A DNA stretch of 64,000 nt from an uncultured bacterium (GCA_964626075.1 CAZVDD010000018.1:18189-82188), one strand, 5' to 3'; numbered from the stretch's first letter, positions 8,211 through 33,423 are shown. Program-made: numbers and translations. The notes: a model not told the origin generated them from the letters alone.

Positions 8211-8687
8211 CTATTGGACAGGTTGAAAGAAACGTATATCGGTTATCGCACCCTCTCTTTTTGCCTTCGGTTTAAGCACTGCAACTACCCTCATCCCAAA
8301 GCAAAGCTCTTCCGACTTCACACCGCCCAGACGATGAACAAGGAAAGTTGATGCACCGTCAAGTTTAATCAACCCTACCAGTTCTGGCTGTTCGAGCCGT
8401 TTGCCATCGAGCCCAAGATAAACCACCGTCCAAGACTCAACTGTCCCGGTCGGCCCAACCGTTACCCAGTTATCAAGGTGTTCTAAACATCGTTCACAGA
8501 AAATTCTTCCCGGAACGAACACCAGCCCACATCGTTCACACTTTGTTCCTATGAACTGCCCTTTTTCTTTAAGCGTTCGGAAAAAACGCTCGCCACCTAG
8601 CCCCACCGTATAAAGGCTATCAACCGGCAACTCACCAAACCAGACCTTAGTCTGGCTAATCTTTTCATTGCGTTGTTTCAGCGCCAT
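8211..8687 (-). CDS. DUF35-type Zn-ribbon/OB-fold protein (thiolase/aldolase partner subunit), short form
   Basis: 158 aa with CERCGLVFVPGRIFCERC rubredoxin-like Zn ribbon followed by an OB-fold region; adjacent to thiolase-like genes. Confidence 0.75.
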   Translation of the reverse strand: MALKQRNEKISQTKVWFGELPVDSLYTVGLGGERFFRTLKEKGQFIGTKCERCGLVFVPGRIFCERCLEHLDNWVTVGPTGTVESWTVVYLGLDGKRLEQPELVGLIKLDGASTFLVHRLGGVKSEELCFGMRVVAVLKPKAKREGAITDIRFFQPVQ

Positions 8688-8700
8688 CTTACTCCTCCCT

Positions 8701-9300
8701 TTACACTGGCTTCCAGTAGCAGATATCGGTAATTGCCCCTTCCCGCTGCGCGGGCTCTTTCCAAACCGCCTTCACTTTCATACCAACGTACACCTTTTTG
8801 GGGTCCACCTCACCTAATAGGTGCATTATTCCCATCCCCTTTGTTGCACCATCAATCTCAATCACTGCGGGAATCTGTGGTTCTTTAATCCTTTTCATAT
8901 CCCAGGTTACATAACATAGCGAAAAAGTGTTCACTATACCTGTATCTTTGAGTTCCACCCATCCGTCGATATTACGGTAACACCATTCGCAAAAAAGCCG
9001 GGGCGGCACCATCACCCGGTGACATTTGTAACACCGCACACCCAAAATCTTTCCCTCTTTTAACCCGGCCAGATACCGACCTATTGCCACACCGGCATCC
9101 CAGCCGTACTTCGCGTCCGCCTTCCATCGTGTTGTAAGAACTTTGCCCTGCCTGAGCTCTTCGTCACTGAGACCGGTCCCCTGAAGCCCGCCTTCTAACT
9201 TTTGCTTACCGTCTTTCAGTATCTCTTGTCCGCCAACGCGACCGGGAGCAACTGGTTGGTAAATTTCCTTTCTTAGCTTTTTAACCTGTGCCATTTTCAC
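8701..9300 (-). CDS. DUF35-type Zn-ribbon/OB-fold protein with N-terminal extension, long form
   Basis: 199 aa; CYKCHRVMVPPRLFCEWC Zn ribbon plus OB region; C-terminus ends REGAITDI, paralogous to 8211-8687. Confidence 0.75.
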   Translation of the reverse strand: MKMAQVKKLRKEIYQPVAPGRVGGQEILKDGKQKLEGGLQGTGLSDEELRQGKVLTTRWKADAKYGWDAGVAIGRYLAGLKEGKILGVRCYKCHRVMVPPRLFCEWCYRNIDGWVELKDTGIVNTFSLCYVTWDMKRIKEPQIPAVIEIDGATKGMGIMHLLGEVDPKKVYVGMKVKAVWKEPAQREGAITDICYWKPV

Positions 9301-9303
9301 CTC

Positions 9304-10464
9304 CTATACTCCTACAACCACAACTGCTCCAACCTGCATTAAATCACCCCATGCTTGGGCAACGCCGCGCTTTACCTTTCGCGCCACCTGACGCTTTCCT
9401 GCCTCCCCCCTTAACTGCCAGAAAAGTTCTGCCACCTTCATCAAACCAGCAGCGGCTATTGGATTACCAACCCCGAGCAACCCACCTGAAGGACAAACTG
9501 GCAACTCACCATCACGCTGAGTAACACCGTCTACGGTAAGTTGCGGCGCCTCTCCTCTACCGCACAAAAGCAGCCCCTCCATGTGGTGCAGTTCTTTGTA
9601 ATCAAACGGGTCGTAAGGCTCGGCAATATGAATCTGATGACGTGGGTCAGTAACACCTGCCATCTTGTATGCCATCCTTGCTGCCTCTTCAACATAACGC
9701 GGATAACACAGGTCGCGATTTGTCCAGTAGGCGGTATCCAGGGACCAACCGACGCCCTCAATCCATACCGGTTTGTCGGTAACCCTTCGGGCAACAGTCT
9801 CGTTTGCCAGAATTACCGCCACTGCGCCATCCGAAACCGGGCTGACATCAAGCCTTTGTACCGGCCAGGCAAGAACTTCGGAGCTAAGGATATCATCCAG
9901 TGTAACCTTGCCGCCGAGTTGCGCTGCCGGATGGTCAAGAGCATTATTTTTGTTCTTCACCGCAACCAGGGCAATATCCTCTTTCCGTAATCCGTAGGTG
10001 GTCATATAGCGGTTCATCTCGAGCGCAAATATCCAAAGCAAATTTGGCTTTAAAGGTCGCTCGGTGGTGTGGTCAAAAATTGTAAGAAACGCCCCCTGGG
10101 GGTGAGGCTGGAAAGAGGACATCTTCTCCTCACACACCACAAGACAGGTATCGAAAACACCGGAAGCAACATGATACCACCCATGAGCAACGGCGAACAC
10201 TCCGGTACCGCCGCCCACATAACACCGCATATAGGGCTTTCCCCAGGCACCGGCACCCGGTGACAGATACTCACCTTTCATATGCACACCATCAAAAGTG
10301 TCCGGGGCGCTACCTAACACGACGCCGTCAATCTGGTCAAGCTTCATCCCGCAACTATCCAGCGCCATTTTTGTTGCATAGAAGGCAAGTTCCTGACCGG
10401 TCTCCTGCGCCCGCCGCACGAACTTTGTCATTCCCACACCAACGATTGCTACTCTATTCCCCAT
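9304..10464 (-). CDS. SCP-x/archaeal-type thiolase-like protein (acetyl-CoA C-acyltransferase or retro-aldolase family)
   Basis: 386 aa, MGNRVAIVGVGMTKFVRR... thiolase-fold N-terminus; candidate nucleophile Cys in MRCYVGGGTG; glycine-rich C-terminal GGLLGVGNPIAAAG. Confidence 0.8.
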   Translation of the reverse strand: MGNRVAIVGVGMTKFVRRAQETGQELAFYATKMALDSCGMKLDQIDGVVLGSAPDTFDGVHMKGEYLSPGAGAWGKPYMRCYVGGGTGVFAVAHGWYHVASGVFDTCLVVCEEKMSSFQPHPQGAFLTIFDHTTERPLKPNLLWIFALEMNRYMTTYGLRKEDIALVAVKNKNNALDHPAAQLGGKVTLDDILSSEVLAWPVQRLDVSPVSDGAVAVILANETVARRVTDKPVWIEGVGWSLDTAYWTNRDLCYPRYVEEAARMAYKMAGVTDPRHQIHIAEPYDPFDYKELHHMEGLLLCGRGEAPQLTVDGVTQRDGELPVCPSGGLLGVGNPIAAAGLMKVAELFWQLRGEAGKRQVARKVKRGVAQAWGDLMQVGAVVVVGV

Positions 10465-10473
10465 TGCTCCTCC

Positions 10474-11634
10474 TTAAACAGTTAAAATTGCAACGGCGAC
10501 ACTTGTCGTCGGAAGCCCACGCCAAGCGTGAACCAGCGCGGTTCGGGGGTTGGGCAGTTGATTCTTTCCACAAGCACCACGCAACTCTTGCACCGCCCAA
10601 TAGAACCGGGCAAGACCTGTCGCCTCGTAAAGATAACCCATCCCTAAGGCGCCACCCGACGAATTTACGGGCAAATTACCCTTCAATTCTGTCCGGCCCG
10701 ATTCAATCCATCCTCTCAACTCACCTTCACCCACCAGCCGCAATTCCACAAGGTGCTGCAACTCCTTGTAAGAGTAAGTATCATCGACCTCGGCAAAGTC
10801 AATCTCCTTGGCCGGGCACTGAATACCTGCATGCCGATAAGCCATATCCGCTGCCTTGGTAACAAAATCCTGTCTTTCCCAATTGCGGGACTCCAGACTG
10901 AAAGAGCCACTACACCATCCAACGCCACTCAGAAACACCGGTTTTGCTCCATTACTATACCTTTTCCGTAACCACGCCTCAGAAGCCAATACAACTACCA
11001 CCGCACCATCAACCGGCTGAGCGATATCAAGTTCGGAAAGCGGAAAAGCCACTATCGGTGAAGATCGGAAATCGTCGTCAGAAAGTCTTGCCGCCCGCCC
11101 GGCTAAAGGATTAGCAAGTGCATTAGCCCGGTTCTTCTTCACCACCGCTGCACAGTGCTCGCGGCTCAAACCAGAGCGCTGGAGAAACAGGTTCATCTCC
11201 AGCCCGGCAATAAAAATGTTGTTCAAACCAAGCGGCCGATTAAAAACCGGGTCCTGAGCGCAAACCGCCACCCCATCCGGTGTCAGGATGTTTGATGCCT
11301 TAGAGTGTGCCTCCACCACCGCCACATCGAACTCGCCCGTCATTATTTGAAGCCACGCCGCCGCAATCCCATGCAGCCCTTCGCCGGAAATGGTATGCAT
11401 CTGTTTGAGTGCTGCCCCCAGTTGGTCGGGCACATACTCATCAAATATGCTCGTTCCTTCATGGTAGTCCTCAGCGCAGGTTACAAAAGTATCCACATCG
11501 CGCCGCGGATCGATACCCGCATCCTCATAAGCCTTTACTGCCGCCTCAAACATCAGTTCCTTATAAGAAACATCGGGCGAGATGGAACGAAACTGGGTTG
11601 CGCCGATGCCGACAACCGCTACTTTATTTGTCAT
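10474..11634 (-). CDS. SCP-x/archaeal-type thiolase-like protein, paralog lacking an obvious nucleophile Cys at the equivalent position
   Basis: 386 aa, MTNKVAVVGIGATQFRSI...; the position equivalent to the nucleophile Cys reads TISGEG; C-terminal SSGGALGMGYLYEATG. Confidence 0.75.
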   Translation of the reverse strand: MTNKVAVVGIGATQFRSISPDVSYKELMFEAAVKAYEDAGIDPRRDVDTFVTCAEDYHEGTSIFDEYVPDQLGAALKQMHTISGEGLHGIAAAWLQIMTGEFDVAVVEAHSKASNILTPDGVAVCAQDPVFNRPLGLNNIFIAGLEMNLFLQRSGLSREHCAAVVKKNRANALANPLAGRAARLSDDDFRSSPIVAFPLSELDIAQPVDGAVVVVLASEAWLRKRYSNGAKPVFLSGVGWCSGSFSLESRNWERQDFVTKAADMAYRHAGIQCPAKEIDFAEVDDTYSYKELQHLVELRLVGEGELRGWIESGRTELKGNLPVNSSGGALGMGYLYEATGLARFYWAVQELRGACGKNQLPNPRTALVHAWRGLPTTSVAVAILTV

Positions 11635-11884
11635 TGTGCCTCCTTGAAAATCAACCTTCTCGGGAAATTTACCATAAAAAATTTACGACGCACGGACTGG
11701 ATTATACCCCGAAAATGTTTTGTGTCAATGAAAAACCCGTCAGATTCGGACGATTGACTTATGACAGTTCCAGTTGCATTCCAACGTGAAAATGCTTGTC
11801 ATCTTCCCCCGAAAACCTGGGAGCACCCTTATTTGACAAACACGGTAAGACTCTCTATCCTTCACTATCAAGGACAATCATCCG

Positions 11885-13444
11885 GTGCATAAATCGCTAA
11901 TCCTTTCTACCATCAGCCTTCCCTTTCTGATACTTTTCCTGCTACTACCATCGCGTCGTTACAACACCGATGGCTTTCGGGTCCTCGCCACACTTCACCG
12001 GGTAACAGTCAGTCCTGAAGGCACTAGACAGTTTACCCCTCTTAACTGGCAAACCGCCTACCAGCAACCTTACTACTTCCGCCAGAATGTCCAAAAACAT
12101 TTTTTATTTCCTATTTACGCCTACACCGCCTTCCGCATCTTTCGACTGTTCCGATACCAAGACAACGGCGTCAAACCATTGCAAACTGCCAACGCCATTT
12201 CTGCCACCATTACCCTGCTGTTGTTTGCTTTTCTTTTCACAACTCACTCCTACCCGCTTTCCACCGTAATCATCGCAACCTTGGGACTGGGTTTATCGAG
12301 CGCCTTTGCCGCCCAGGCAACCAACATCGCCGAGGTAGTGCCCGCAACAACCCCCTTGACACTGGCGCTTATTCTTATTGAAAAAAGAAAACCGTTTATC
12401 GCGGCGATTTTTCTCGGCATCAGCGCCGCCTTTTACCTTTTGTCCCTGTTTGTTGTCCCTTTTCTCATTTTATTGTTTTTGGGCCGAACACCGCGCCGCA
12501 TCCCGCTCTCCCTTCTTATCATCCCGCCCATAACAACTCTTTTCATCTATTTAACTGTCCTTATCCCTGCCGGCAACAAAAACCTGCAGGACCTCCTGAC
12601 CGCGCTCTTCTTTTTACCGGAACAGGGCACATTTGGCGGATTCAAACTGTCGAATTCCATCTCTACCCCGCTCGGCTTTATATCCAGTATCCTTCCCGTA
12701 CTCCCCGAAAACTTCTCCGGTATCAAAACCGCACTTGCCACCCGAAACCCGCCCCCACTCCTGCTATTAACCTCAATCATCATTGGCATTCTACTTCTGA
12801 CCCTGCCACTGCTAACGGCGCACAAAAAAGTGCAACGAACACCGGGCATCGCCCTGCTCATTACCAGTCTGGTCACCGCCCTCTTCTGGGACCCCTATCA
12901 TCAGAAAATCTGGCTCTATGGAGTTATCGGCTTCTGGCTTGTTCTTGCCCATCTCCGCCATTTACGCCTCTTCATTTTACTTATCCTGTTTATATTGATC
13001 CCGCTTAACATCAACGCCCTCATCAAAAACCACCAACCAAACCGAAAATGGCAAACCGCACAAAAACTTGCTCGCTTTCTACTTTTTGAACAACACCCCG
13101 GAAACAAAAAAGTTGTATTTGGTAACTGGGAACCGGAATTTGACTACCTCACCGCCTTTCTGCCCGACACCTGCCTTATCTCAATACCCGACCTCATCCT
13201 TGAAATTAGAAGAGACTCCAGCCGATTCCATTCAACAATTGACTCCATCAAACTGAGTTGTCCGGCAGCCGCAGTCTATTTTGTCAACACCTTCAACCGC
13301 ACCAAACAACAGTTAGAAAAGTTATATGTTCACCGCCTTAAATTCCCCTATATCCTCACCTGGCTGGAGAACCAGCGCCCTTTTACCCAGCCCTTATGGC
13401 ATGACTCGTTAACCGGCACCACCCTCTACCAGCTCTCCAATTAA
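11885..13444 (+). CDS. Polytopic integral membrane protein, function unknown (possibly GT-C-like glycosyltransferase)
   Basis: 519 aa with more than 10 hydrophobic segments; GTG start; no recognisable catalytic motif. Confidence 0.5.
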   Translation: MHKSLILSTISLPFLILFLLLPSRRYNTDGFRVLATLHRVTVSPEGTRQFTPLNWQTAYQQPYYFRQNVQKHFLFPIYAYTAFRIFRLFRYQDNGVKPLQTANAISATITLLLFAFLFTTHSYPLSTVIIATLGLGLSSAFAAQATNIAEVVPATTPLTLALILIEKRKPFIAAIFLGISAAFYLLSLFVVPFLILLFLGRTPRRIPLSLLIIPPITTLFIYLTVLIPAGNKNLQDLLTALFFLPEQGTFGGFKLSNSISTPLGFISSILPVLPENFSGIKTALATRNPPPLLLLTSIIIGILLLTLPLLTAHKKVQRTPGIALLITSLVTALFWDPYHQKIWLYGVIGFWLVLAHLRHLRLFILLILFILIPLNINALIKNHQPNRKWQTAQKLARFLLFEQHPGNKKVVFGNWEPEFDYLTAFLPDTCLISIPDLILEIRRDSSRFHSTIDSIKLSCPAAAVYFVNTFNRTKQQLEKLYVHRLKFPYILTWLENQRPFTQPLWHDSLTGTTLYQLSN

Positions 13445-13495
13445 CACCCGAACAACCGCTTGACCACGCTTTCGTTTTCGTTAGATTTAACCTGT

Positions 13496-14635
13496 ATGAA
13501 AATCCACGAATATCAGGCTAAACAGATTTTTGCCCAGGCGGGAATCCCAACTCCCCGCGAGGTAATGGTAAAGTCACCTCTGGAAGCAAAACAGGCAGCT
13601 GTTGCGGTCGGCATTCCTGCGGTACTCAAAGCCCAGGTCCTGGTTGGTGGCAGAGGCAAAGCCGGTGGTGTCAAACGCGTCGATCGATTTGAAGATGTCC
13701 AACCGACCGCCGAAACAATCCTCGGGATGTCAATAAAAGGGTTAAAAGTCACAAAACTCCTCGTCTCGGAATGTGTCCCGATTAAATCCGAGTTCTACCT
13801 CGGTATAACGATAGACCGTTCCGCACGGCAGCCGGTTCTACTCGCATCCGCCGCGGGTGGCGTTGAGATTGAAGAGGTAGCGAAAACCAGCCCGGAAAAA
13901 ATACTTAAGGCGGAAATCGACCCCATGCTCGGCATCCTCCAATTTCAAACCCGCAACATCGGCTTTTCCCTGTTCAACGACCTGAAATTGGCCAGCACCT
14001 TCAGCACCCTCTGCCAAAAACTGTACCAGATATTTGTCCAGCGCGACTGCTCGCTTGTGGAAATCAACCCGTTGGTATTAACAGACGCGGGCGCACTGCT
14101 TGCCTTGGACGCCAAAATCAACTTTGACGACAACGCCCTTTTCCGCCATCCCGAAAACGAAGCGTTACGTGACCCGGAAGGTGAAGAACCCAAAGAAATG
14201 GAAGCAAAAGCCGCCGGTCTTTCTTACATCAAACTCTCCGGCAATGTTGGCTGCATCGTCAACGGTGCTGGTCTGGCAATGGCGACGATGGATTTAATCA
14301 AACGCTACGGCGGCGAACCGGCAAACTTCCTTGATGTTGGTGGCTCATCATCACCCGAAAAGATGGTAACCGCGATGCGCATCATCCTCTCCGACCCCAA
14401 TGTTAAGGCAATCCTCGTCAACATCTTCGGCGGCATCACCCGCTGCGACGACATCGCCCAGGGGCTCATTGCCGCAACCGAGAAAGCCAAAATCAAAGTG
14501 CCCATTGTCGCCCGACTGGTGGGCACCAATGCCGAAAAGGCGTGTGCCCTGCTTGCCGATAGTCCGGTCTTAAGTGCCACCGGAATGAGTGAAGCGGTCA
14601 AACTGGCGGTTATTAAAGCAAAGGAGGCAAGATGA
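13496..14635 (+). CDS. sucC: Succinyl-CoA synthetase (ADP-forming) beta subunit
   Basis: MKIHEYQAKQIFAQAGIPTPRE... ATP-grasp SucC N-terminus; start moved to the internal Met. Confidence 0.88.
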   Translation: MKIHEYQAKQIFAQAGIPTPREVMVKSPLEAKQAAVAVGIPAVLKAQVLVGGRGKAGGVKRVDRFEDVQPTAETILGMSIKGLKVTKLLVSECVPIKSEFYLGITIDRSARQPVLLASAAGGVEIEEVAKTSPEKILKAEIDPMLGILQFQTRNIGFSLFNDLKLASTFSTLCQKLYQIFVQRDCSLVEINPLVLTDAGALLALDAKINFDDNALFRHPENEALRDPEGEEPKEMEAKAAGLSYIKLSGNVGCIVNGAGLAMATMDLIKRYGGEPANFLDVGGSSSPEKMVTAMRIILSDPNVKAILVNIFGGITRCDDIAQGLIAATEKAKIKVPIVARLVGTNAEKACALLADSPVLSATGMSEAVKLAVIKAKEAR

Positions 14636-15495
14636 GCATCCTGATTGACCAGAACACGCGATTGATTGTTCAGGGCATCACCGGCCGAGACGGCGCCTTT
14701 CACGCCCGATTGATGAAAGAGTATGGCACACAAGTTGTTGGTGGTGTAACCCCGGGCAAAGGTGGACAGGAGATTGAAGGCATACCGGTTTTCAACTCGG
14801 TTGCGGAAGCGGTCCAGACAACTGATGCCAACGCATCAATCATCTTTGTGCCTGCTAACTTTGCGGGCGATGCGCTACTCGAAGCGGCTTTCTCCGGTGT
14901 AGAACTTATCGTCTGCGTCACCGAAGGGGTCCCGGTCCTTGATGCAATCAAGGCAATTGCGGTCGCCCGAACCCGTGGCGTCCGGATTGTTGGTCCCAAC
15001 TGCCCCGGTGCAATTTCGCCCGGAAAGGCAAAAGTTGGGATAATGCCCGCTACCGCATTCCGGCCTGGGCCGGTCGGCATCGTTTCCCGTTCCGGAACCC
15101 TGACCTATGAGATTGCCGCCAACACCGGCAAGTTCGGTCAATCAACTGTGATCGGTATCGGTGGCGACCCGGTTATCGGCACAAACTTCATTGACTGCTT
15201 AAAAATGTTTCAGGACGACCCCGAGACCAAAGCAATTGTCATCGTGGGCGAGATTGGTGGTAGTGACGAAGAAAAGGCAGCCCAGTTTGTCCAACAATAT
15301 GTAAGAAAACCGGTATTCGGCTTCATCGCGGGTCAGACCGCGCCCCCAGACAAAAGAATGGGTCATGCTGGCGCCATCATATCTGCCGGTTCCGGCACCG
15401 CCCAAGAAAAGATTCGGGCGTTCCAGTCCGCAGGCATTGATGTTATCTACGAACCCGAGGAACTGGCAGAAAAACTTAAGGCAAGAATAATGTAA
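14632..15495 (+). CDS. sucD: Succinyl-CoA synthetase alpha subunit
   Basis: MSILIDQNTRLIVQGITGRDGAFHARLM...; CoA-binding and His-phosphorylation region; start overlaps the sucC stop. Confidence 0.9.
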   Translation: MSILIDQNTRLIVQGITGRDGAFHARLMKEYGTQVVGGVTPGKGGQEIEGIPVFNSVAEAVQTTDANASIIFVPANFAGDALLEAAFSGVELIVCVTEGVPVLDAIKAIAVARTRGVRIVGPNCPGAISPGKAKVGIMPATAFRPGPVGIVSRSGTLTYEIAANTGKFGQSTVIGIGGDPVIGTNFIDCLKMFQDDPETKAIVIVGEIGGSDEEKAAQFVQQYVRKPVFGFIAGQTAPPDKRMGHAGAIISAGSGTAQEKIRAFQSAGIDVIYEPEELAEKLKARIM

Positions 15496-17981: not shown

Positions 17982-20534
17982 CTAACCGGCTAATAGCAAA
18001 CGAAGGCTGTTGCTTTCGCAATGAGGGCAGGCGCGTTCTTCGGGCTGGCCCGGTGTCCAGTGATGAGTTGATTCTTTGCCGCAGCGGAGGCATACAAACG
18101 ACATCTCACCGGCAGTCTTGGGCTCAGTTCGTACGGCTACCCTGGGAGGATTACGAAGAATCTGCTTTGTCTGCTCAATCTCCTCTGGTGTCACCGACGC
18201 CCTGAGCCTTTCCAGTTCCCCCATTGTTTTGACAAACCGCGGTGCCTGCGCCGCAGAAATCCACTCCAGTTGCAGCCTTTCCGGTCGAATCCCCCACGCC
18301 TCAAGTTTGTCCCATAGTTTTTCGACCCGACGCTGGGTCTGCCGGTTAGCATTGAGGTAGTGGCAGTCCGCATAGTGACACCCCGAAACAAGAACGACCG
18401 GGGCCCCGAGTGCAAATGCTTTGAGCACAAACTTTTCAGCAACGCGGGCGCTGCACATCGTTCGAATCAAAACCTGTGTGGGTGGGTACTGCGACCGTGT
18501 CAGCCCAACCGTATCTGATGCCGCATAGGAGCACCAGTGGCAGGCAAACACAATCGCTTTCGACTCGGGTTCTTCTGCTAGCGCCGCCTCAATCTGAGCA
18601 ATAATCTGTTCGTCCGTGAACTGATGTGCCTCAATCGCCTCAAACCGACACTCTGCCGCACAATTGCCACAGCCGGCACAGACGGCATCAATCGCCTTTG
18701 CCGGCGCACCCCGTTGCCACTCGACCGCTTTAAATGTACAGACCGGTGCGCACATGCCACAAGCACGGCACTTATCGGTTATAACCTCCACCGTATTGGG
18801 CTCTGCCGCCAGTGAACTTTGTGCCAAAAGCCGCGCCGCTCGCCCCGCCGCCGCACTTGCCTGTGTCACCGAATCCTTGACATCTTTTGGTCCTTCGGCA
18901 CACCCGGCATAAAAAACCCCGCGTACTGGCGAATCAACCGGTTGCAGTTTCGGGTGTGCCTCAAGAAGGAAACCTTCCGGATGGATTTGCAGCGCCATAA
19001 GTTGTTGAATCGGCTTGGTCTCAGGCCTTGGTTTGACTCCGGTCGCCAGCACCACCAGTTCCGCGATGTGTTCTTCAACCTTACCGGTTTCGGTGTTTTC
19101 CACATAGAGTTTTAGATTGCCCGTTGCTTTATCTTCAATCACTTCACCTGGAATCCCGCGAATATATTTGACACCGAGGCGCCGGGAACGCCACAACATC
19201 TCTTCAAACCCTTTACTGAAGGCGCGTAGGTCGATGTAGAAAACTTTGATGTCCATATCCGGGTAATGCTCTTTAAGCACCAGACTGTCTTTAATTGTGT
19301 TCATACAACAGATGTTGCTACAGTAGGGCGTACCCTGTTGCACACAGCGCGAGCCGACACACTGAATAAAGGCGATGCTGTCCGGGCGCCGCCGGTCACT
19401 CAGCCGGATGAGTTCACCGCCAGTTGGTCCTCCCGAGGATGCCAGTCGCTCAAACTCCATTGCCGTTATCACATTTGCTGCCCGACCATAGCCGAATTCG
19501 GCGCGTGGCAACGGGTCAAACGGCTCCATTCCGGTAGCAACGATAATTGCACCCACCTCAAAGTTGAACTCTTTGTCCTGAGCGTTCAAGTCAATGCACT
19601 TCTTTTCGCACGCCTGAGCACATTTGCCACAGGCAATGGGGTTTAAGCCAAGACAGTCATCGGGATTGAGTACATAAGCCGCCGGAATCGCCTGCGGGAA
19701 CGGCTGGTAAATCGCATGTCTCAACCCAAGCCCTAAATTAAACTCATCCGGAACCAGTTGCGGGCAAACCTGGGCACATTCGCCACAGGCGGTGCACTCC
19801 CGCTCATCAACAAATCGCGCCTTCTGCCGAACCGTTACCTTAAAGTCACCAACATGACCGGCAACTTCTTTGACCTCGGCAAGGGTCAGGAGTTTGATTT
19901 TCGGATGCCGACCGACATCCGCCATCTTGGGCGCAAGTATTCATATCGCACAATCCATCGTCGGATAGGTTTTGTGCAACTGCGCCATCAACCCACCGAG
20001 CGAAGGTTGACGCTCCACCAGATATACCTGATGACCCGCATCTGCCAGGTCAAGACTCGCCTGAATCCCGGCAACACCACCGCCAATTACCAGCACCGCA
20101 TCCTTTATGGGGAAACGACGCGGGCTAAGCGGTTTCAGTGCCCGTGCTTTTGCCACCGCCATTCGAACCAGACTGCACGCCTTTTTCGTTGCCCGCTCCG
20201 GCTCAAGGGCATGAACCCAGGAACACCCTTCCCGGATGTTCACCATCTCCATAAGAAACGGATTCAAACCCGCCTGTGCCACGCAGGCACGAAAAGTAGG
20301 CTCGTGCATCCGTGGTGTGCAAGCCGCCACCACCACCCGATTGAGGTTGAATTCGGCAATCGCCTTCTGAATCTCCTTCTGCCCTGGTTCAGAGCAGTTG
20401 TAGAGGCTGGTTACCGCATAAACCACATCGGGTAAGGTTTTGACGTAATTCACCACCTCTTCGACATTGACGGTGCCGGCGATGTTGGTGCCGCACCGGC
20501 AGACAAACACGCCGATTCGCGTCTCTTGACTCAT
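17982..20534 (-). CDS. hdrA: Heterodisulfide reductase subunit A-like flavoprotein fused to a C-terminal MvhD/FlpD domain; selenoprotein with an in-frame UGA (Sec) at 19941-19943
   Basis: Track ORFs 19941..20534 and 17982..19925 are in the same frame, separated only by TGA plus five sense codons. N-terminal part has an HdrA-type Cys cluster ([10 protein letters not shown]), FAD Rossmann [19 protein letters not shown], and ...[15 protein letters not shown]...; the downstream part has ferredoxin CxxCxxCxxxCP motifs and an MvhD domain ([12 protein letters not shown]...RTMCSARV...[11 protein letters not shown]). Confidence 0.8.
19902..19921 (-). promoter_or_regulatory. Putative bacterial SECIS hairpin about 20 nt 3' of the in-frame UGA
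   Basis: mRNA reads CGGAUG-UCGGUCGG-CAUCCG: perfect 6-bp stem and 8-nt loop containing GGU, at bacterial-type spacing from the UGA. Confidence 0.5.
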
Positions 20535-20543
20535 CGCCTTATT

Positions 20544-22079
20544 CTACTCCTTATCGCTTATAAAATCAATTAAATTCACAATCCGCAGCGCATCTTTGTT
20601 ACCCCGGCTCAATTGGGCGCAGCGGAGATGAATTTCACACCTACTGCAGCCGGTAATAAGAGTTTCCGCATTTACCGCCTGCCACTCCTGCAAGCGCCGA
20701 TCCTGAAGCAGTCTTACCGCCGCTCCACATTCGAGCCACGATGTGCCCCCACAACACAACGCTTCGGTACGGTTATGCTCCATCTCAACCAGCTCAACCC
20801 CGTTGACTTCGGTAATCAACTGACGCGGCGCATCTTCTACCCCTAAATGTCTACTCAATCGGCACGGGTCATGGTAGGTAACCCGCAATCGCTTCCCATT
20901 GCCAATGGGCTTAAACCCGTGCTCCAGTAAGAACTCACTTATGTGTCTTAATCTCAACCCCAACAATCGGGTTCCGGCAATACGCGGGTAATCCAGTTTG
21001 AATGTCCGCAAACACTCCGGGCAGAGAAATACCACCTCTTTCACCCCTGCATCCTGCAATCTATCTAAGTTGTGCCGGGCAAGTTTCCTTACGGTACGGA
21101 CATCACCCATCCATAACAAATCGTGTCCGCAACAACGCTCATCAGAAAGCACCACCGGCTCAATTCCCAATCGGTTCATAATCCGTACCGCATTACGCAA
21201 TGTTTCAACTGGATTCACCCCCAATTCCTTAAACAGCACATCAAAATAAGGTGCGCATCCCGTCCAGAGGGCGGTTTCGCCTTTATCAACAACTCGCAGT
21301 TCAGCACCAACCCAGTCCCGCCGATTCTGAATCAAAGCCGTTTTTGCCATCATTCTACCCAACGTTTGCACAACACCATCGTGTGCCAGCACCGGCTGTG
21401 TTCCCTCCTGAAATGCTAGCGCCCTTAACCGCAACATCTCTTCCGCAATACTCTTTCCAGTGGGGCAAACTGTTTTACACATATCACACCCTAAACAGGC
21501 ATAAATGACCCTCGTATTCACAACCGTATTTTCGGTCAACGCCTTTTGCAGCAACCGCCGCGGTGAGAAACCAAGACCGGTTCGGGCGACCGGACACACT
21601 CCGCTACACCTACCACAGTCAATACATACAAAATCACTTTGTTTGACAACCTTTTCAAAATCTTTATCACCGCACTCCTGCTCTGAGTTAGCCGGTTGTT
21701 TGTTGAGAAACTTCTCTTTCACTCCCGCTGTTCTCACGAACAAATCATTAAACGAAACTGGTCCAGACACGGTAACGAATTGAACTTGTCCAGGATTAAA
21801 CCCCATCAGCTTTAAAATCTGCCGGCTCATTTCAACCTGTTTTCGGGCATTTTGTGCACCAATCTCGTGCCGGCACTCCTGCTCCAAACAACCGAAAAGT
21901 ACAACCCGGTCGGCACCATACTCAAAGGCACGCAATATCGAACCAGTTCCCACCTGACCGATACAGGTTACCCTCCGATACCCGAACCCGTTTTTCAACA
22001 AAAAATCTGCTGACACCTGCCCGGAAACCCGCTCACAGATGAAAGCAAAGCTTCTGATTAAAGGCGACTTACTTTCCAT
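20544..22079 (-). CDS. FlpD/MvhD-like domain fused to HdrC-like 2x[4Fe-4S] ferredoxin and HdrB-like CCG domains (HdrD-like fusion)
   Basis: N-terminal MvhD-like region (FICERVSG...RVTCIGQV...VLFGCLEQECRH), CIDCGRCSGVCP and CLGCDMCKTVCP clusters, then CCGHD and CCGG cysteine-rich (CCG) motifs. Confidence 0.75.
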   Translation of the reverse strand: MESKSPLIRSFAFICERVSGQVSADFLLKNGFGYRRVTCIGQVGTGSILRAFEYGADRVVLFGCLEQECRHEIGAQNARKQVEMSRQILKLMGFNPGQVQFVTVSGPVSFNDLFVRTAGVKEKFLNKQPANSEQECGDKDFEKVVKQSDFVCIDCGRCSGVCPVARTGLGFSPRRLLQKALTENTVVNTRVIYACLGCDMCKTVCPTGKSIAEEMLRLRALAFQEGTQPVLAHDGVVQTLGRMMAKTALIQNRRDWVGAELRVVDKGETALWTGCAPYFDVLFKELGVNPVETLRNAVRIMNRLGIEPVVLSDERCCGHDLLWMGDVRTVRKLARHNLDRLQDAGVKEVVFLCPECLRTFKLDYPRIAGTRLLGLRLRHISEFLLEHGFKPIGNGKRLRVTYHDPCRLSRHLGVEDAPRQLITEVNGVELVEMEHNRTEALCCGGTSWLECGAAVRLLQDRRLQEWQAVNAETLITGCSRCEIHLRCAQLSRGNKDALRIVNLIDFISDKE

Positions 22080-23934
22080 CGCTACCGGTAAAAACTGCCG
22101 CCGCTAATTTGAAAGAACTCTGGAGTGCACCGCTCGGACAAACAGGTAAACAGTTACCGCATCCCCGACAGCGCTGGTTGTCAACGACCGCAACCTGAAT
22201 ACCTGAATACCACACCTGCCTGCTAATCGCCTCATGGGGACAAATCTCAACACACCTTCCACATCCGCGACACAACTCCTTCTCTACTTTAACAACCAAA
22301 GGCTGAATTACCGCTGGAATTGTCTCGTTCCCTCTGCCGACATTAACTTGTAACTCCACCGCCAGTTCTTCAACATTATCGGGCAAAACAGTTTCCAGGG
22401 AATGAATCCGCATTATCACCGAATCAGATTTGTCAACAGTCTGGACTACCACCTGATGTTTCGGACAGGTCCGATGGCAGCGAATACATTCCCCACAAAA
22501 ACCACACCGTAAACAGCGCTCCGCCTCCTGAACCGCCTGCTCCGGTGTTAACGGTGCCTCAACCTCGGCAAAGATGTTTCGCTTTTCGGGCGCCAGGAGT
22601 CCTAACTTTACCCTGCTCTTGGGCACCGCGGTTAGAACCGGCACCTGAACTTCAAGTTGCACTTCAGAAACTGCTACCGTCTCATCTTGGTTGCTGATAA
22701 ATTTATGAATCGCCTTTGCACCCCGATGACCACTGGCGATGGCATCAATCACCGTTGCCGGGCCACTTGCCGCATCGCCCCCGACAAAAACCCCAACGGG
22801 CAATTGATTTACATCCTTTTCCACCTTCTGGCCCAGTGCGGTGATAACCCAATTAGCACCAATCACAAAAAGCGAATCCGGAATCGGTACCGGTTTTCTC
22901 CGCCCCGACTCATCGGGCGCGCCCAGCGTATTTCGGACACATTTCAATCCGGTAACCTTGCCATCCTTATAAACAAACTCTACCGGCTGGGTCAGATACT
23001 CAATTCTGACACCCTCTGCCTCTGCCTGGGAAATCTCCTCTTCATCGGCAGGCATTTCTGTTCTGCTTCGGCGGTAAACAATCCAAACCTCTTCAGCCCC
23101 TAACCGCTTTGCCACTCTTGCGGCGTCAATCGCCGAATTTCCACCGCCAATCACCAGCACCCTACCAAGCAAATTTTTAATATCACCGGAAAACGCCCTT
23201 TTCAAAAATGAAAGCGCATCAATCACTCCGGTAAGTTCATCCTCCAAAGCCAGCCCCAGAGTCAAGCTTTTCTGACAACCCGGAGCATAAAACACCGCCG
23301 CATAACCATCTTTTAGAAGTTGTGCCGGCTCGTCAATTTTTGTTCTGGTAAAAATTTCCACTCCCAATCCGAGAATGGAGTCAATCTCCTGTTCAATAAC
23401 CGACCGAGGCAGACGAAAAGGCGGAATACCCCATAACAGCATACCACCAGGTTTTTCCTGTGCCTCAAAAATCGTCACCTGATACCCTAACCGAATTAGG
23501 TCGTTTGCCGCAGTCAAACCCGCCGGACCAGCACCGACAACCGCCACGCGTTGCGGCTGTTTAACGGTGTCTTTTGGTAATGCCGCCTGGGGTTGATTGA
23601 CCGCATAATCGGCGATGAAACGTTTCAGGGCTCTGATTGCGACCGGTTCATCCAATTCCGCCCGACGGCACTCTTTCTCACAGGGATGGGTACAAACGCG
23701 GCCGCAGATTCCAGGAAAAGGATTGGTCTGTCGCACCACTTCCAGCGCCTGGACAAATTTGCCGGCGGCAATTAACCCAACATAAGCCTTGACATTAACA
23801 CCAGCCGGACAGGCAACCCGACAGGGCGACGGTGGCGCCGGCACGATTTGAAACTCCCGCTCCCCAACTCGTAAACTCGCCCCCTTCCCATAAAGCATCT
23901 CCTTGAAACTCAGCCGTTCCTTTGCCGTGTTCAC
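22069..23934 (-). CDS. GltD/NfnB/SudA-family NAD(P)H-dependent FAD oxidoreductase with C-terminal extra [4Fe-4S] ferredoxin domains
   Basis: N-terminal CRVACPAGVNV...ICGRVCTHPCEKEC Fe-S motif, two Rossmann motifs (VAVVGAGPAGLTAANDL; VLVIGGGNSAIDAA), C-terminal CRGCGRCVEICP/CRGCGNCLPVCP. Confidence 0.8.
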   Translation of the reverse strand: MNTAKERLSFKEMLYGKGASLRVGEREFQIVPAPPSPCRVACPAGVNVKAYVGLIAAGKFVQALEVVRQTNPFPGICGRVCTHPCEKECRRAELDEPVAIRALKRFIADYAVNQPQAALPKDTVKQPQRVAVVGAGPAGLTAANDLIRLGYQVTIFEAQEKPGGMLLWGIPPFRLPRSVIEQEIDSILGLGVEIFTRTKIDEPAQLLKDGYAAVFYAPGCQKSLTLGLALEDELTGVIDALSFLKRAFSGDIKNLLGRVLVIGGGNSAIDAARVAKRLGAEEVWIVYRRSRTEMPADEEEISQAEAEGVRIEYLTQPVEFVYKDGKVTGLKCVRNTLGAPDESGRRKPVPIPDSLFVIGANWVITALGQKVEKDVNQLPVGVFVGGDAASGPATVIDAIASGHRGAKAIHKFISNQDETVAVSEVQLEVQVPVLTAVPKSRVKLGLLAPEKRNIFAEVEAPLTPEQAVQEAERCLRCGFCGECIRCHRTCPKHQVVVQTVDKSDSVIMRIHSLETVLPDNVEELAVELQVNVGRGNETIPAVIQPLVVKVEKELCRGCGRCVEICPHEAISRQVWYSGIQVAVVDNQRCRGCGNCLPVCPSGALQSSFKLAAAVFTGSDGK

Positions 23935-24497
23935 GCCCGCCTCTTTTCTTTTCCAACCTGATACCCCTTCTCCAGCGCAATAAGATTTTTTTCCAGGAGT
24001 CGCGCCGGCAGTATGTCCTGAACCGCTTTAATTAGAGCCTCCTTGGGCACAATGCCGGTCACCGCAACCAAAAATCCAAGCATCACCATATTGGCATACA
24101 TCCGATTCCCAAGCCCCTCGGCAATTCTTGTCGCCGGAATGGCAAACTCCTTGACCCGGCCCAGGTGGTTATGCGGTCGTACCAGATTTTCCTCCCAGAT
24201 GAGCACGCCGTCATCCTTCAATGTGGGCTCAAACTTTTCATAGGCTTCTTGGGACATTGCCACTAAAATGTCCGGCGCTGTCAGATAAGGATAAAGCACC
24301 CGCTCCTCAGAAATAATCAACTGTGCCGAACAGGCACCCCCTCGCGCCTCGGGCCCGAAACTTTGCGTCAAGGTGGCATACTTATTATCATAAAGCGTTG
24401 CAGCACGGCCTAACACCATCCCCATCATTATAATGCCCTGGCCGCCAAATCCGGAAAGTTTAATCTCCATCTTCCATTGGTCCTTGATACGGGACAA
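23931..24497 (-). CDS. korC: 2-oxoacid:ferredoxin oxidoreductase gamma subunit
   Basis: 188 aa with GFGGQG pyruvate/ketoisovalerate oxidoreductase gamma-domain signature. Confidence 0.8.
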   Translation of the reverse strand: MSRIKDQWKMEIKLSGFGGQGIIMMGMVLGRAATLYDNKYATLTQSFGPEARGGACSAQLIISEERVLYPYLTAPDILVAMSQEAYEKFEPTLKDDGVLIWEENLVRPHNHLGRVKEFAIPATRIAEGLGNRMYANMVMLGFLVAVTGIVPKEALIKAVQDILPARLLEKNLIALEKGYQVGKEKRRA

Positions 24498-25350
24498 ACT
24501 TTTCGCCCACAGTCGTGCGCAAAAATTGGTTCATAATCTCGAGGTAAGTGGGCTGTTGCTTCTGAACAAACCTTCCAACAACGATTGGACCTTGATAGGT
24601 TATTTCGCACTCCCGGGTGTCAATATCGTTCCTGACGACCGACCTTTCCTTATAATACTTCACAATCTCAAGGCCCGAGCCCAACTGATTGCGCCGGCCA
24701 TAAACCGTCGGGCAGGGCGAAATCACCTCAACAAAACTGAATCCCGAGTGCATTAAAGCCTCTTTGAATGCTTGTGTCATCTGTCGGACATGAAGCACAG
24801 TCCAGCGTGCCACATAGGTTGCCCCGCAGGAGTCAACAAGAAATGGAATGTTAAACGGGTGCTCAAAACTGCCGTAAGGCGCCGTCGTCAACTTCGCGCC
24901 CTGGGGTGTCGTTGGGCCAAACTGACCGCCCGTCATCGCATAGTTGAAATTGTTTACACAGATTACGGTCAAATCCATATTGCGCCGCGCTGCATGAATA
25001 AGGTGGTTACCGCCAATCGACACCAAATCACCGTCGCCGGAGATAATCACCACCTTCAGTTGCGGATTGCCCAATTTTAAACCAATCGCAAACGGTATCG
25101 CCCGGCCATGGGTGGTGTGAAACGAATCAAGGTTTACATAACCAGCGGCGCGGCCCGTGCAACCGATACCGGACACAACTACCAAATCCTGCCGGGGAAT
25201 GGCACTCTCCCGCACCGCCGTCAGAAAAGAGTTCAAAACGATACCCAGACCACAGGTCGGACACCAGATATGGGGTATGCGGTCCACCCTTAACAGGTCG
25301 TCAAGCGGGTGCTGTTCCAGCCCGGCGATATTGACCGTCGCTTCACTCAT
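24460..25350 (-). CDS. korB: 2-oxoacid:ferredoxin oxidoreductase beta subunit (TPP-binding)
   Basis: GIGCTGRAAGY..GDGD TPP-binding motif, 296 aa. Confidence 0.85.
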   Translation of the reverse strand: MSEATVNIAGLEQHPLDDLLRVDRIPHIWCPTCGLGIVLNSFLTAVRESAIPRQDLVVVSGIGCTGRAAGYVNLDSFHTTHGRAIPFAIGLKLGNPQLKVVIISGDGDLVSIGGNHLIHAARRNMDLTVICVNNFNYAMTGGQFGPTTPQGAKLTTAPYGSFEHPFNIPFLVDSCGATYVARWTVLHVRQMTQAFKEALMHSGFSFVEVISPCPTVYGRRNQLGSGLEIVKYYKERSVVRNDIDTRECEITYQGPIVVGRFVQKQQPTYLEIMNQFLRTTVGEKFVPYQGPMEDGD

Positions 25351-26501
25351 CGCGCACTCTCCATTATCGCCTCAAAGATGTCTTTCGGGTCATGAACCCA
25401 ACCACCACAATGGGGAACATGTCGCGTCTGCGCCCAACCCCCCACCACCCTTTGCAGCTCCAGATACACCTGACCCAAATTTATCTCGGGCATAACAAAC
25501 GCCTTTACTCTCTTTGCCAGTTGTTTAATCTTACTTTCCGGGAAGGGCCAGACCGTAATCAACCGCAACATCCCGACCTTCACACCGCGTGCCCGGGCGT
25601 CTTCAATCGCCTTGAACGCCACCCGGGCACTGATTCCGTAAGCGACAACAACCACCTCGGCGTCGTTTAGTTGGTACTCATCTACGATAACTATTTTCTC
25701 CCGATTCTTGCGGATTTTTTCAACCAGATGGGTAACGCACCAGTTCTGACACTCGGCATTTATCACCGGATAACCCCGTTCATCATGGGTCAATCCGGTA
25801 ATATGAATCCGGTAATCCTTTCCTGCCCGGACCATCGCGGGTACACCATCCTCCTCGGGTTTAAAAGGGCGATACTGTTCTCGCGGACCACGATACCACC
25901 TTCTTGGTACCAAACGGATTTTATCTGGCTCCGGGATGACCACCTTTTCGGTCATATGGCCTACACATTCATCCATCATAAACAAAACCGGGACTCGGAA
26001 TTGCTCGGCGAAATTAAAACAGGTAATCGTCAAATCGAAACACTCCTGTGGTGAAGCCGGTGCCAGAGCGATAATCTCATAATCCCCGTGCGAACCCCAC
26101 CGGGCTTGCATCATATCTTGCTGCCCGGTTAAAGTGGGTAATCCAGTTGAAGGACCACCCCGCTGGACATTAACTACGACACAGGGGGTTTCAGTCATCA
26201 CCCCGAGCCCGATATTCTCCTGCATCAACGAAAAACCAGGACCCGAGGTAACAGTCATCGCTTTAGTTCCTGCCCATGCTGCGCCCAGCACCGCCGCAAT
26301 TGAAGCCAGTTCATCTTCCATCTGAATAAATGTACCGCCAACCATCGGGAACCGCTGGGCAATTCGTTCCGCAATCTCGGTGGAAGGGGTTATTGGGTAC
26401 CCGGCAAAAAAACGACAGCCAGCCGCAATCGCCCCCTCAGCACAGGCGTGGTCACCATCAAGAAAATGTGCTCCGGTCAGCACAACATCACTGTTCCTCA
26501 C
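25347..26501 (-). CDS. korA: 2-oxoacid:ferredoxin oxidoreductase alpha subunit
   Basis: 384 aa, FAGYPITPSTEI... canonical alpha-subunit N-terminus. Confidence 0.85.
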   Translation of the reverse strand: MRNSDVVLTGAHFLDGDHACAEGAIAAGCRFFAGYPITPSTEIAERIAQRFPMVGGTFIQMEDELASIAAVLGAAWAGTKAMTVTSGPGFSLMQENIGLGVMTETPCVVVNVQRGGPSTGLPTLTGQQDMMQARWGSHGDYEIIALAPASPQECFDLTITCFNFAEQFRVPVLFMMDECVGHMTEKVVIPEPDKIRLVPRRWYRGPREQYRPFKPEEDGVPAMVRAGKDYRIHITGLTHDERGYPVINAECQNWCVTHLVEKIRKNREKIVIVDEYQLNDAEVVVVAYGISARVAFKAIEDARARGVKVGMLRLITVWPFPESKIKQLAKRVKAFVMPEINLGQVYLELQRVVGGWAQTRHVPHCGGWVHDPKDIFEAIMESAR

Positions 26502-30919: not shown

Positions 30920-31654
30920 CTACTCTTCCGGCTCAAACTGGTCCTTGCTCGCGCCACAAACCGGGCAGACCCACTCTGGAGGTAAACTCTCAAAAGGTGT
31001 ACCAGCCGGTACCCCGTTGTCCGGGTCACCTTCTGCCGGGTCGTAAACATAACCGCAAACTGTGCAAACATAGCGTTGCATCTTGCTCTCCTTTGTTTTA
31101 CTCTCTTTACTAACTCCCGCCAACCTTTCCTGCTCTTTTTGCGGCTGATAGGTCGGCGCGCCCTTACCGGTTTTCCCCTTCTTAACCTCGTGATAATAGG
31201 CATAAGTGAGCGGTTCACCCTGCTTCACCCATTTTGCCATCACCACTTCACCGACAAATTGCGTATGGGTCACACAGTCTACCTTTTCCCGCACCCTTGC
31301 CTCCATGACCACAATCGCATGCTCGGTAATCAGTGGTACACCGGTTTCGCCCCTCTCGTAACTAAGCCCTTCAAACTTGTTCACATCTCGACCGGAGCGA
31401 AAACCAAATCGGCCGATAAACTCAATAGGTGTCTCTTTTTCGAGAACGGTCACCGCAAATACCCCGCTCTTTTGAATCAATTCATGGGTAAAACTCGCCT
31501 TGTTGATCGCCACCGTAACCAGACACGGTTCCAGCGCCACCTGAACAACGGTATTCACCGTCAATCCATTGATTTGCTCTCCCGCCCGGCTCGTAACAAT
31601 GTAAAGACCGTAGGTTAAACTATTCAGGGCACTTAAATCGACTTTTCCCGCCAT
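30920..31654 (-). CDS. Flavin reductase-like domain fused to C-terminal rubredoxin (high-molecular-weight rubredoxin, Hrb-like)
   Basis: N-terminal flavin-reductase fold ([20 protein letters not shown]...); C-terminal [15 protein letters not shown]...[14 protein letters not shown] rubredoxin. Confidence 0.75.
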
Positions 31655-32854: not shown

Positions 32855-32872
32855 AAGATGCTCCGTTAAAAA

Positions 32873-33418: not shown

Positions 33419-33423
33419 AACAG

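Follow-up and report, generated by a model that had tools for sequence, protein, structure and literature searches.

Two thiolase-fold paralogs lacking the catalytic cysteine and two DUF35 paralogs form a conserved gene cassette in bacteria and Bathyarchaeia

A 64,000-nucleotide stretch of DNA from an uncultured bacterium (GCA_964626075.1 CAZVDD010000018.1:18189-82188), called the window in the following, carries between positions 8211 and 11634 a cassette of four genes, which encode two thiolase-fold paralogs, T1 and T2, and two DUF35 paralogs, D1 and D2. The nucleophilic cysteine of thiolases is missing from T1 and T2, the residues that replace the catalytic set in T2 are fixed across phyla, and the four genes keep the same order in bacteria and archaea. 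The features of the locus are the following.

10474..11634, minus strand: T1, a 386-aa SCP2/archaeal-type thiolase-fold protein; closest NCBIfam model PRK06066
9304..10464, minus strand: T2, a 386-aa thiolase-fold protein; equivalog of NCBIfam PRK06065
8701..9300, minus strand: D1, a 199-aa DUF35 protein with a Cys4 zinc ribbon (residues 90-107) and an OB fold
8211..8687, minus strand: D2, a 158-aa DUF35 protein with a Cys4 zinc ribbon (residues 50-67) and an OB fold
11701..11728, minus strand: cassette promoter of sigma-70 type (TTGACA-16 nt-TATAAT, 12/12 matches), about 67 nt 5' of the T1 start codon
7788-7465: rpsJ, with its own 11/12 promoter inside the 422-bp spacer between D2 and rpsJ

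The genes are separated by 9 nt (T1/T2), 3 nt (T2/D1) and 13 nt (D1/D2), and lie exactly where a first-pass annotation, made from the sequence alone, had placed two 386-aa thiolase-fold and two DUF35 reading frames on the minus strand. T1 and T2 are 34% identical and both have the Pfam domains Thiolase_N and Thiolase_C_1; D1 and D2 share 38% identity and each matches both zf-ChsH2 and OB_ChsH2_C above the gathering score. The N-terminal extension of D1 is specific to candidate division WOR-3; the best matches come from WOR-3 as well, which makes it the likely source of the window. A zinc ribbon of the form CxxC-x10-CxxC is present in D1, in D2 and in all 108 homologous DUF35 open reading frames (ORFs), and neither DUF35 gene is a pseudogene, an outcome that the first-pass annotation had allowed for. 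With a promoter of their own, intact reading frames and no match to any Rfam family in the region of the cassette and the rpsJ spacer, the four genes are therefore genuine and constitute a separate transcription unit.

The position next to the S10 ribosomal operon, stressed at first, is real in so far as rpsJ begins 422 bp downstream, but it is incidental: the promoters are separate and the adjacency is lineage-specific, the cassette of other WOR-3 genomes being found next to plsY-gpsA, HIT-gltX or unrelated genes. Co-transcription with the S10 operon was rejected on these grounds. A regulatory RNA in the 422-bp spacer was rejected too, as no Rfam family matched there.

Catalytic positions of T1 and T2

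Catalytic positions were placed by HMMER alignment to solved thiolases together with an alignment of about 100 representatives, and residue conservation was counted over 121 orthologs, complemented by orthologs from other phyla. The nucleophilic cysteine of 7yvy (AAC-ASG) and of BbsB (SAC-SAG) aligns with Gly85 of T2 and with Ser83 of T1. Where canonical thiolases have VENACASG, HDCF and GHP, T2 has CYVGGGTG, YDPF and GNP; alignment to zebrafish SCP2-thiolase gives the same replacements of HDCF and GHP and, furthermore, sets Cys324 of T2 against the Asn of the 'NPSGG' motif. Neither protein has a nucleophilic cysteine at the elbow between N-β3 and N-α3. The HDCF loop, which provides the oxyanion-hole histidine and the acid/base cysteine, reads YDPF in T2 and DDTY in T1, and the histidine of the GHP loop is Asn334 in T2 and Tyr334 in T1.

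The replacement residues of T2 hardly vary. Gly85 and the run Tyr284-Asp-Pro-Phe287 are invariant in the 121 orthologs and in every phylum sampled, position 334 is Asn in 120 of the 121, Gly84 and Gly373 are invariant as are His121, His293, His294 and Asp374, and Gly86 is nearly so; altogether, 203 of 386 positions are at least 98% invariant. Among the cysteines, only Cys324, which precedes the GNP loop by ten residues, was invariant in all sets inspected, namely the 121 orthologs and every other phylum sampled. T1 has Ser83, D284-D-T-Y and Tyr334 at the equivalent positions in the window. These drift across orthologs (S, T, P or A at 83; D, S or C at 284; Y, H, N or I at 334), for which reason T1 looks like a degenerate partner; T2 looks like a re-tooled active site. 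Having lost both the nucleophilic and the acid/base cysteine, T2 should not be able to form an acyl-enzyme intermediate. Judged by these residues, neither T1 nor T2 can be a canonical thiolase, and the label "acetyl-CoA acetyltransferase" that databases attach to the module is probably wrong.

A structure of T2 predicted with AlphaFold2 (AF2) from a 142-row alignment (pLDDT 88, pTM 0.90) has the thiolase fold, in line with the Pfam thiolase domains of both paralogs, and Foldseek matched it to 6esq with a TM of 0.92 and to 7yvy with a TM of 0.86. Since archaeal and SCP2 thiolases, TbSLP, Sal, Ltp2 and PhlC all rank as close matches (TM 0.8-0.92), the modelled fold alone does not discriminate among these families. 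Fold and domains, together with the source annotations, which read 'acetyl-CoA C-acetyltransferase' in JGI, in some NCBI records and in cluster names, are what speaks for a pair of ordinary acetoacetyl-CoA thiolases with DUF35 helpers. We consider this very improbable: the residue analysis contradicts it, since T2 has none of the four residues concerned (the nucleophile, both catalytic residues of the HDCF loop and the GHP histidine) and in T1 each of them is either missing or variable, and the thiolase model TIGR01930 gives 15-20 bits against a cutoff of 240. As for the models that fit better, T2 belongs to PRK06065 with 660 bits against a cutoff of 455, and T1 has its best score with PRK06066, yet under the cutoff (443 versus 516 bits). 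Both families are named just 'thiolase domain-containing protein', with no function assigned in NCBIfam.

The first-pass annotation had noticed a cysteine in the nucleophile region of one paralog (MRCYVGG) and TISGEG in the other. Both strings are indeed present, at residues 79-85 of T2 and 81-86 of T1, but the cysteine is Cys81, four residues before the true nucleophile position, which is the invariant Gly85. Cys81 itself varies (C in 74, S in 35 and G in 10 of the 121 orthologs; N, P, H, A or G in other phyla), and in the AF2 model it lies within β-strand 78-82, with the elbow at residues 83-87 and a helix from residue 88 onwards. The serine of TISGEG does align with the nucleophile; the position is variable in orthologs, however. 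A pairing of one active thiolase with one inactive partner has to be given up, neither paralog having the nucleophilic cysteine, and the opposite case, two paralogs with complete canonical residues, is not what the alignments gave. Cys111 was considered as a relocated nucleophile and rejected, as it is Ala or Thr in Actinomycetota, in one Bathyarchaeia genome and in bin44.

Loss of the canonical residues in both paralogs might also mean that the complex is a pseudoenzyme, i.e. a non-catalytic scaffold or an acyl-CoA-binding or regulatory assembly, and DUF35 proteins are known as scaffolds (10.1101/2024.07.05.601840). However, the extreme conservation of T2 and its invariant replacement residues suggest re-tooling and not decay, and the cassette has a strong promoter of its own, which makes a purely non-catalytic role quite improbable.

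Distribution of the module and its relation to known systems

A scan of GTDB species genomes yielded at least 591 loci, of which the best 80 match T2 at 73-91% identity and belong to WOR-3, Anaerolineae and other Chloroflexota, Dehalococcoidia, Actinomycetota, a metagenome-assembled genome (MAG) assigned to Symbiobacterium thermophilum, Deltaproteobacteria MAGs, Krumholzibacteriia and Bathyarchaeia (74%). Identities of this order between bacterial phyla and archaea point to strong constraint on T2 and to a reaction that is probably important. A protein identical to T2, with the same neighbours, is encoded on a 62-kb JGI metagenome contig.

A tblastn census of the four genes was made over 92 loci, which represent at least seven bacterial lineages plus Bathyarchaeia and are referred to by number (L) where needed. 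T1 and T2 were present at 92 of 92 loci and D1 and D2 at 86, most of the others being contigs that end just 3' of T2; the gene order was always T1-T2-D1-D2. A natural metagenomic protein of 731 aa, P0242, joins a T2 part (61% identity) to a D1-like and a D2-like part in one chain, and this fusion supports a physical association of T2, D1 and D2. The module may also be incomplete or interrupted: the 12.4-kb Anaerolineae contig L022 yielded no T1 and has a nucleotidyltransferase/HEPN-like ORF separating T2 from D1, and L089-L091 carry genes for an asparaginase_2 and a PsiE protein at that same place.

Within a library of representatives at 50% identity, T2 shares 61-67% identity with the closest full-length clusters and 44% with the one after them. 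Because of this drop, T2 can be delimited by its sequence as a tight orthogroup (at least 61% identity internally, at most 44% to anything else). The Bathyarchaeia orthologs (L047, L054, L074) are 74% identical to the WOR-3 protein, which implies gene transfer between domains under very strong constraint. The literature searched contained no description of a module of two Cys-less and two DUF35 paralogs, no functional characterisation of the T1T2D1D2 orthogroup and no account of its conservation between bacteria and archaea or of its link to C4/C5 acyl-CoA genes; the combination appears to be undescribed.

The module works like the known thiolase-fold/DUF35 systems and is a member of none of them. 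The general idea of the first-pass annotation, a heteromeric system of this kind and not a simple acetoacetyl-CoA thiolase, holds, whereas the individual kinships it named do not extend to membership. In actinobacterial sterol catabolism, Ltp3 and Ltp4 are adjacent thiolase-like paralogs within steroid clusters, for which a joint aldol-lyase activity has been proposed. Ltp2-ChsH2 of Thermomonospora curvata and M. tuberculosis and Sal-Shy of Comamonas testosteroni (PDB 6ok1, 9myr) are steroid side-chain retro-aldolases with an SCP2-thiolase fold and a DUF35 partner. In the aldolases Ltp2 and Sal, Gly takes the nucleophile position and the motif YDHF or YDCY supplies a catalytic Tyr; a second catalytic residue is provided by Tyr344 in Ltp2 and by the motif cysteine, Cys304, in Sal (PMC12329534). 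T2 has the same Gly and Tyr (Gly85 and Tyr284 of YDPF), T1 has neither, and an acyl-enzyme intermediate should be as impossible in T2 as it is in both aldolase systems. By numbering offset, the Gly that provides a backbone amide to the oxyanion hole of Sal falls on Gly373 of T2; the second catalytic residues of Ltp2 and Sal were likewise located in T2 from the offset in numbering and not from a direct alignment.

The differences are nevertheless considerable. The core of the steroid aldolases is a homodimer, in contrast to the heterodimer of two paralogs that would be formed here. Their DUF35 domain is part of a fusion with a MaoC hydratase, in place of which the cassette has D1 and D2 as separate proteins. 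The annotated neighbourhoods of the cassette contained neither MaoC nor steroid genes, and its hosts are anaerobes and archaea. Sequence likeness between T2 and Ltp2 or Sal is modest, with 76-81 bits in phmmer and 23-25% identity in the Foldseek alignments. Lacking a second catalytic residue, a fusion to MaoC and a steroid setting, the cassette is not a further Ltp2/ChsH2 system.

The benzoylsuccinyl-CoA thiolase BbsAB (PDB 7pxp) also combines thiolase-fold with DUF35 zinc-ribbon subunits and is the best PDB sequence match of T1. BbsB, however, keeps the catalytic Cys and His (SACSAG, HDAF, GHP), and the enzyme has one type of thiolase and one type of DUF35 subunit. The module misses the NCBIfam equivalog cutoffs by a factor of at least 6: the BbsB model gives 120 bits for T2 and 84 for T1 (cutoff 750), and the BbsA model 20 bits for D2 (cutoff 250) and no match for D1. 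The archaeal thiolase/HMG-CoA synthase/DUF35 complex provides the best superposition of T2 (TM 0.92). It joins two different thiolase-superfamily enzymes by a scaffolding DUF35 protein, and the archaeal KT/DUF35 studies deal with canonical thiolases (10.1101/2024.07.05.601840). Both of its enzymes depend on a cysteine, one of them being HMG-CoA synthase, and there is a single type of DUF35 protein, in contrast to the two SCP2-type Cys-less paralogs described here. Neither T1 nor T2 has an HMG_CoA_synt domain, the search for an HMG-CoA synthase gene found none in the 64-kb window or in related loci, and the archaeal thiolase model AcCoTHIOL_METTL scored 191 bits against a cutoff of 600.

TbSLP of Trypanosoma brucei (PDB 5ab4-5ab7) shares with T2 a thiolase fold without nucleophilic cysteine and the Tyr of its YDCF motif. 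It has been reported to bind malonyl- and acetoacetyl-CoA (PMC12329534). It differs in that the motif cysteine is kept and in being homomeric, without a DUF35 partner. For PhlABC/MucABC, the comparison turned out negative, the cassette containing no KAS-III-like gene and T2 having Gly at the position of Cys88 of PhlC.

Architecture of the thiolase-fold/DUF35 type is common, and BbsAB, Ltp2/Sal and the archaeal complex are all among the sequence or structure matches, so that orthology to one of them had to be considered. The equivalog models fail by wide margins, though, no HMG-CoA synthase, MaoC, bbs or steroid genes were present at the 92 loci, the hosts are anaerobic fermenters and archaea, and T2 falls into an orthogroup of its own. 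The cassette can hardly be an ortholog of any of these systems.

Genomic neighbourhoods

Within 10 kb of the cassette, the census counted acyl-CoA dehydrogenase (ACAD) at 27 of the 92 loci, FabG at 29, FabD at 24, CoA-transferase at 8-9, Icm at 8, Hbd at 5 and SucCD at 3. The fabK-fabD-fabG neighbourhood of Anaerolineae was rejected as a functional link and judged to be mostly inherited synteny of the rpmF-nusB-tat region, because L092 keeps this synteny without the fab genes and WOR-3 has a genuine FabH. Peptidases, ABC transporters, histidine kinases, PEPCK and pyruvate kinase were neighbours that did not recur.

Deltaproteobacteria-type MAGs have the order 4HBT thioesterase-Hbd-TetR-ACAD-corrinoid adenosyltransferase (ATR)-IcmA-IcmB-T1-T2-D1-D2-MeaB. 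One such operon, that of L086 (4HBT-Hbd-TetR-ACAD-ATR-IcmAB-cassette-MeaB), is without a canonical thiolase. A split B12-dependent acyl-CoA mutase of Phe/Gln type stands beside the cassette in L013, L016, L086-L088, L054, L074 and L022, which belong to Deltaproteobacteria-type MAGs, to Bathyarchaeia and to a single Anaerolineae genome. Several of these loci also encode MeaB, and the Delta-type ones ATR; in the latter, the cassette lies between the mutase subunits and MeaB. The mutases adjacent to the cassette have Phe and Gln (RQF/RMF, AQK) where a copy of the methylmalonyl-CoA mutase type, also encoded at L022, carries Tyr and Arg; we take Phe/Gln to be the signature of isobutyryl-CoA mutase and Tyr/Arg that of methylmalonyl-CoA mutase. 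No paper connecting DUF35/thiolase-like proteins with isobutyryl-CoA mutase was found in the literature searched, and the thiolase/DUF35 pair in a paper on an acetone-degrading Desulfotomaculum is an ordinary one.

In Bathyarchaeia, a mutase of the same type and MeaB adjoin the cassette. A canonical thiolase/DUF35 pair stands divergently beside it in L047, L054 and L074, and genes for a biotin carboxylase, an MTHFR-like and a MetE-like protein are near it in L054 and L074. In Anaerolineae, the order is Ptb-like, a P-loop protein, the cassette, CoA-transferase α and β, and ACAD. The conserved P-loop (GSGKS) protein of about 431-440 aa, encoded directly 5' of T1 in L001 (7464-8759) and in 16 other Anaerolineae loci, has no Pfam or NCBIfam match and a faint likeness to cyclic 2,3-diphosphoglycerate synthetase (E = 0.19). 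The transferase belongs to the glutaconate CoA-transferase subfamily (GctAB-like) and keeps the catalytic Glu of GctB. We therefore rejected these neighbours as decarboxylases of the AibAB type, in which AibB has Asn at this position. The Anaerolineae ACAD is closest to the AcrC/Bcd type and also resembles non-decarboxylating glutaryl-CoA dehydrogenase. SucCD is encoded on the same strand 5' of the cassette in a Chloroflexia genome (L080) and divergently in the window.

The first-pass annotation had also tied the cassette to hbd at 50055-50912. The gene is there, and Hbd indeed lies beside the module in the WOR-3 locus L008, convergent and directly after D2, and near it in L086; in the window, however, 40 kb separate the two, and the link is weak.

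Candidate reactions and the remainder of the window

As to function, we lean, tentatively and with less than even confidence, towards a Cys-independent, enolate-based C-C lyase of the retro-aldol type that would act on a short β-hydroxyacyl-CoA. This keeps as best reading the β-oxidation-like or C-C lyase role on an acyl-CoA that had been put forward initially. A retro-aldol reaction is favoured because T2 shares its Gly and its Tyr with Ltp2 and Sal, and the ACAD found near the cassette at 27 of the 92 loci would follow the ACAD-hydratase-aldolase order of the Ltp2 pathway.

From the organisation in one operon we infer an obligate hetero-oligomer of T1, T2, D1 and D2. Its core would be a T1-T2 heterodimer, each protomer of which is clamped by one DUF35 protein, D1 or D2, acting as a clamp or scaffold, and T1, as a degenerate non-catalytic paralog, may replace the second protomer of the usual thiolase dimer. 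T2 would be the catalytic subunit, retaining the thiolase fold along with what is needed to stabilise the enolate of an acyl-CoA: the main-chain amides of Gly85 and of Gly373, together with Tyr284 and Asn334 at the positions of the two thiolase histidines. The reaction may be a reversible aldol/retro-aldol conversion between a short β-hydroxyacyl-CoA and a carbonyl compound plus acetyl- or propionyl-CoA, with Tyr284 as base on the β-hydroxyl, as in the Ltp2 and Sal aldolases. The complex would act at a short-chain (C4-C5) acyl-CoA node of anaerobic fermentation, with ACAD, CoA-transferase, Hbd, an isobutyryl-CoA-type mutase and succinyl-CoA synthetase as putative partners.

Several observations weigh against such a lyase. 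The second catalytic residue of the steroid aldolases is not retained, Tyr344 of Ltp2 falling on Asn334 and Cys304 of Sal on Pro286 of T2, and T2 does have an invariant cysteine, Cys324. Neither a MaoC- or crotonase-type hydratase nor an aldehyde dehydrogenase recurs beside the cassette. Hbd, Icm, a CoA-transferase and a Bcd-like ACAD are the usual company of a β-ketothiolase, and the L086 set amounts to isobutyryl-CoA/butyryl-CoA oxidation complete but for crotonase and thiolase. The subunit arrangement, finally, is read from gene order and one fusion protein.

Some of these points would suit a functional β-ketoacyl-CoA thiolase with a non-canonical mechanism, which would fill the acetoacetyl-CoA thiolase slot of butyrate/isobutyrate metabolism. 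CoA-SH might attack directly the β-carbonyl held by the amides of Gly85 and Gly373, the stretch Gly84-Gly85-Gly86 making room for a second pantetheine arm; or the nucleophile might have been relocated, for example to Cys324. The L086 operon without canonical thiolase, the Anaerolineae cassette followed directly by a CoA-transferase pair and a Bcd-like ACAD, and the window with its Hbd yet no canonical thiolase would all agree with this, as would the lack of a recurrent hydratase or aldehyde-handling enzyme. Gly84, Gly85 and Cys324 are invariant and Gly86 nearly so, and Tyr284 and Asn334 could still build an enolate oxyanion hole. On the other hand, all four canonical catalytic positions are replaced, Cys324 probably sits at the start of a strand away from the catalytic loops in the model, and the canonical thiolase/DUF35 pair beside the cassette of Bathyarchaeia suggests that the two are not redundant. 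To our knowledge, thiolysis that is independent of cysteine or uses a relocated one is without precedent in the thiolase superfamily. A thiolase of this kind is the main rival reading, possible but on the unlikely side.

The retention of enolate-stabilising positions despite the lost nucleophile also recalls KSQ/CLF and TbSLP, and hence an acyl-CoA decarboxylase or another enzyme of acyl-CoA enolates, with malonyl-, methylmalonyl- or glutaconyl-CoA as possible substrate. Acyl-CoA mutases, the biotin carboxylase of Bathyarchaeia, the glutaconate-type CoA-transferase and the glutaryl-CoA-dehydrogenase-like ACAD would be fitting neighbours, but this context is confined to few lineages, and the adjacent mutases have Phe/Gln instead of the Tyr/Arg that we presume to mark methylmalonyl-CoA mutase. 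TbSLP, a close structural match to T2, was reported to decarboxylate malonyl-CoA weakly; this is a very low activity, and the authors have since come to suspect an aldolase (PMC12329534). Decarboxylation as the function of the cassette seems improbable.

In a wider perspective, T1T2D1D2 may be an unrecognised Cys-independent C-C enzyme of central anaerobic metabolism, be it a β-ketoacyl-CoA 'thiolase' with a ternary complex or a relocated nucleophile, or a short-chain acyl-CoA aldolase that joins aldehydes or ketones directly to acetyl- or propionyl-CoA. In hundreds of species of bacteria and archaea, it would then stand in for acetoacetyl-CoA thiolase or bypass it. We put this generalisation forward as a doubtful one. 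The module itself is present in at least several hundred species representatives, among them WOR-3, Chloroflexota, Actinomycetota, Bacillota (Symbiobacterium), Deltaproteobacteria MAGs, Krumholzibacteria and Bathyarchaeia. Because it is routinely annotated as acetyl-CoA C-acetyltransferase, metabolic reconstructions of uncultured anaerobes count it as a thiolase of butyrate metabolism or β-oxidation, and identification of its activity would correct many pathway maps. It could also add to the chemistry known for the thiolase fold, as an acyl-CoA aldolase for small molecules or as a Cys-free Claisen enzyme, either of which would be of interest for biocatalysis. Four small soluble proteins, with orthologs in Symbiobacterium thermophilum (as assigned from a MAG), make a testable target.

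The remainder of the 64-kb window contains no gene for HMG-CoA synthase, crotonase, ACAD or a canonical thiolase. It encodes Hbd, a class IV aminotransferase, a 2-oxoacid:ferredoxin oxidoreductase, Hdr/Flx-like and NfnB-like proteins and secreted peptidases, a content that fits a proteolytic, amino-acid-fermenting anaerobe. A cluster at 17982-26501 (minus strand) of an FlpD/MvhD-like protein, an HdrD-like (CCG) protein, an NfnB/GltD-like flavoprotein and the three-subunit 2-oxoacid:ferredoxin oxidoreductase has the appearance of a fermentative anaerobe's electron-bifurcation or ferredoxin module. At 30920-35229 (minus strand) lies an oxidative-stress set with a flavin reductase-rubredoxin fusion, a flavodiiron-like protein (ODP β-lactamase fold plus flavodoxin), a ferritin, a peroxiredoxin and a rubrerythrin. 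A gingipain-like C25 peptidase of 1333 aa with a C-terminal FlgD-Ig domain is encoded at 41244-46436 (minus strand) beside a PorV-like protein, which points to type IX secretion of proteases.

Closer to the cassette, a 519-aa ORF on the plus strand (11885-13444) has the look of a multi-pass membrane protein and no Pfam match; it lies between the cassette promoter region and sucCD (13460-15495) and is also conserved in the related contig L005. At 20-400 on the minus strand, just after rplF, the window encodes the first 127 aa of a genuine FabH (NCBIfam β-ketoacyl-ACP synthase III, 402 bits), whose gene continues past the start of the window. L005 has two FabH-like genes after rplF (20065-21161), an unusual interruption of the ribosomal-protein cluster. 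Genes are mostly on the minus strand, and the GC skew is negative in all 2-kb bins over the 64 kb (cumulative -5.5).

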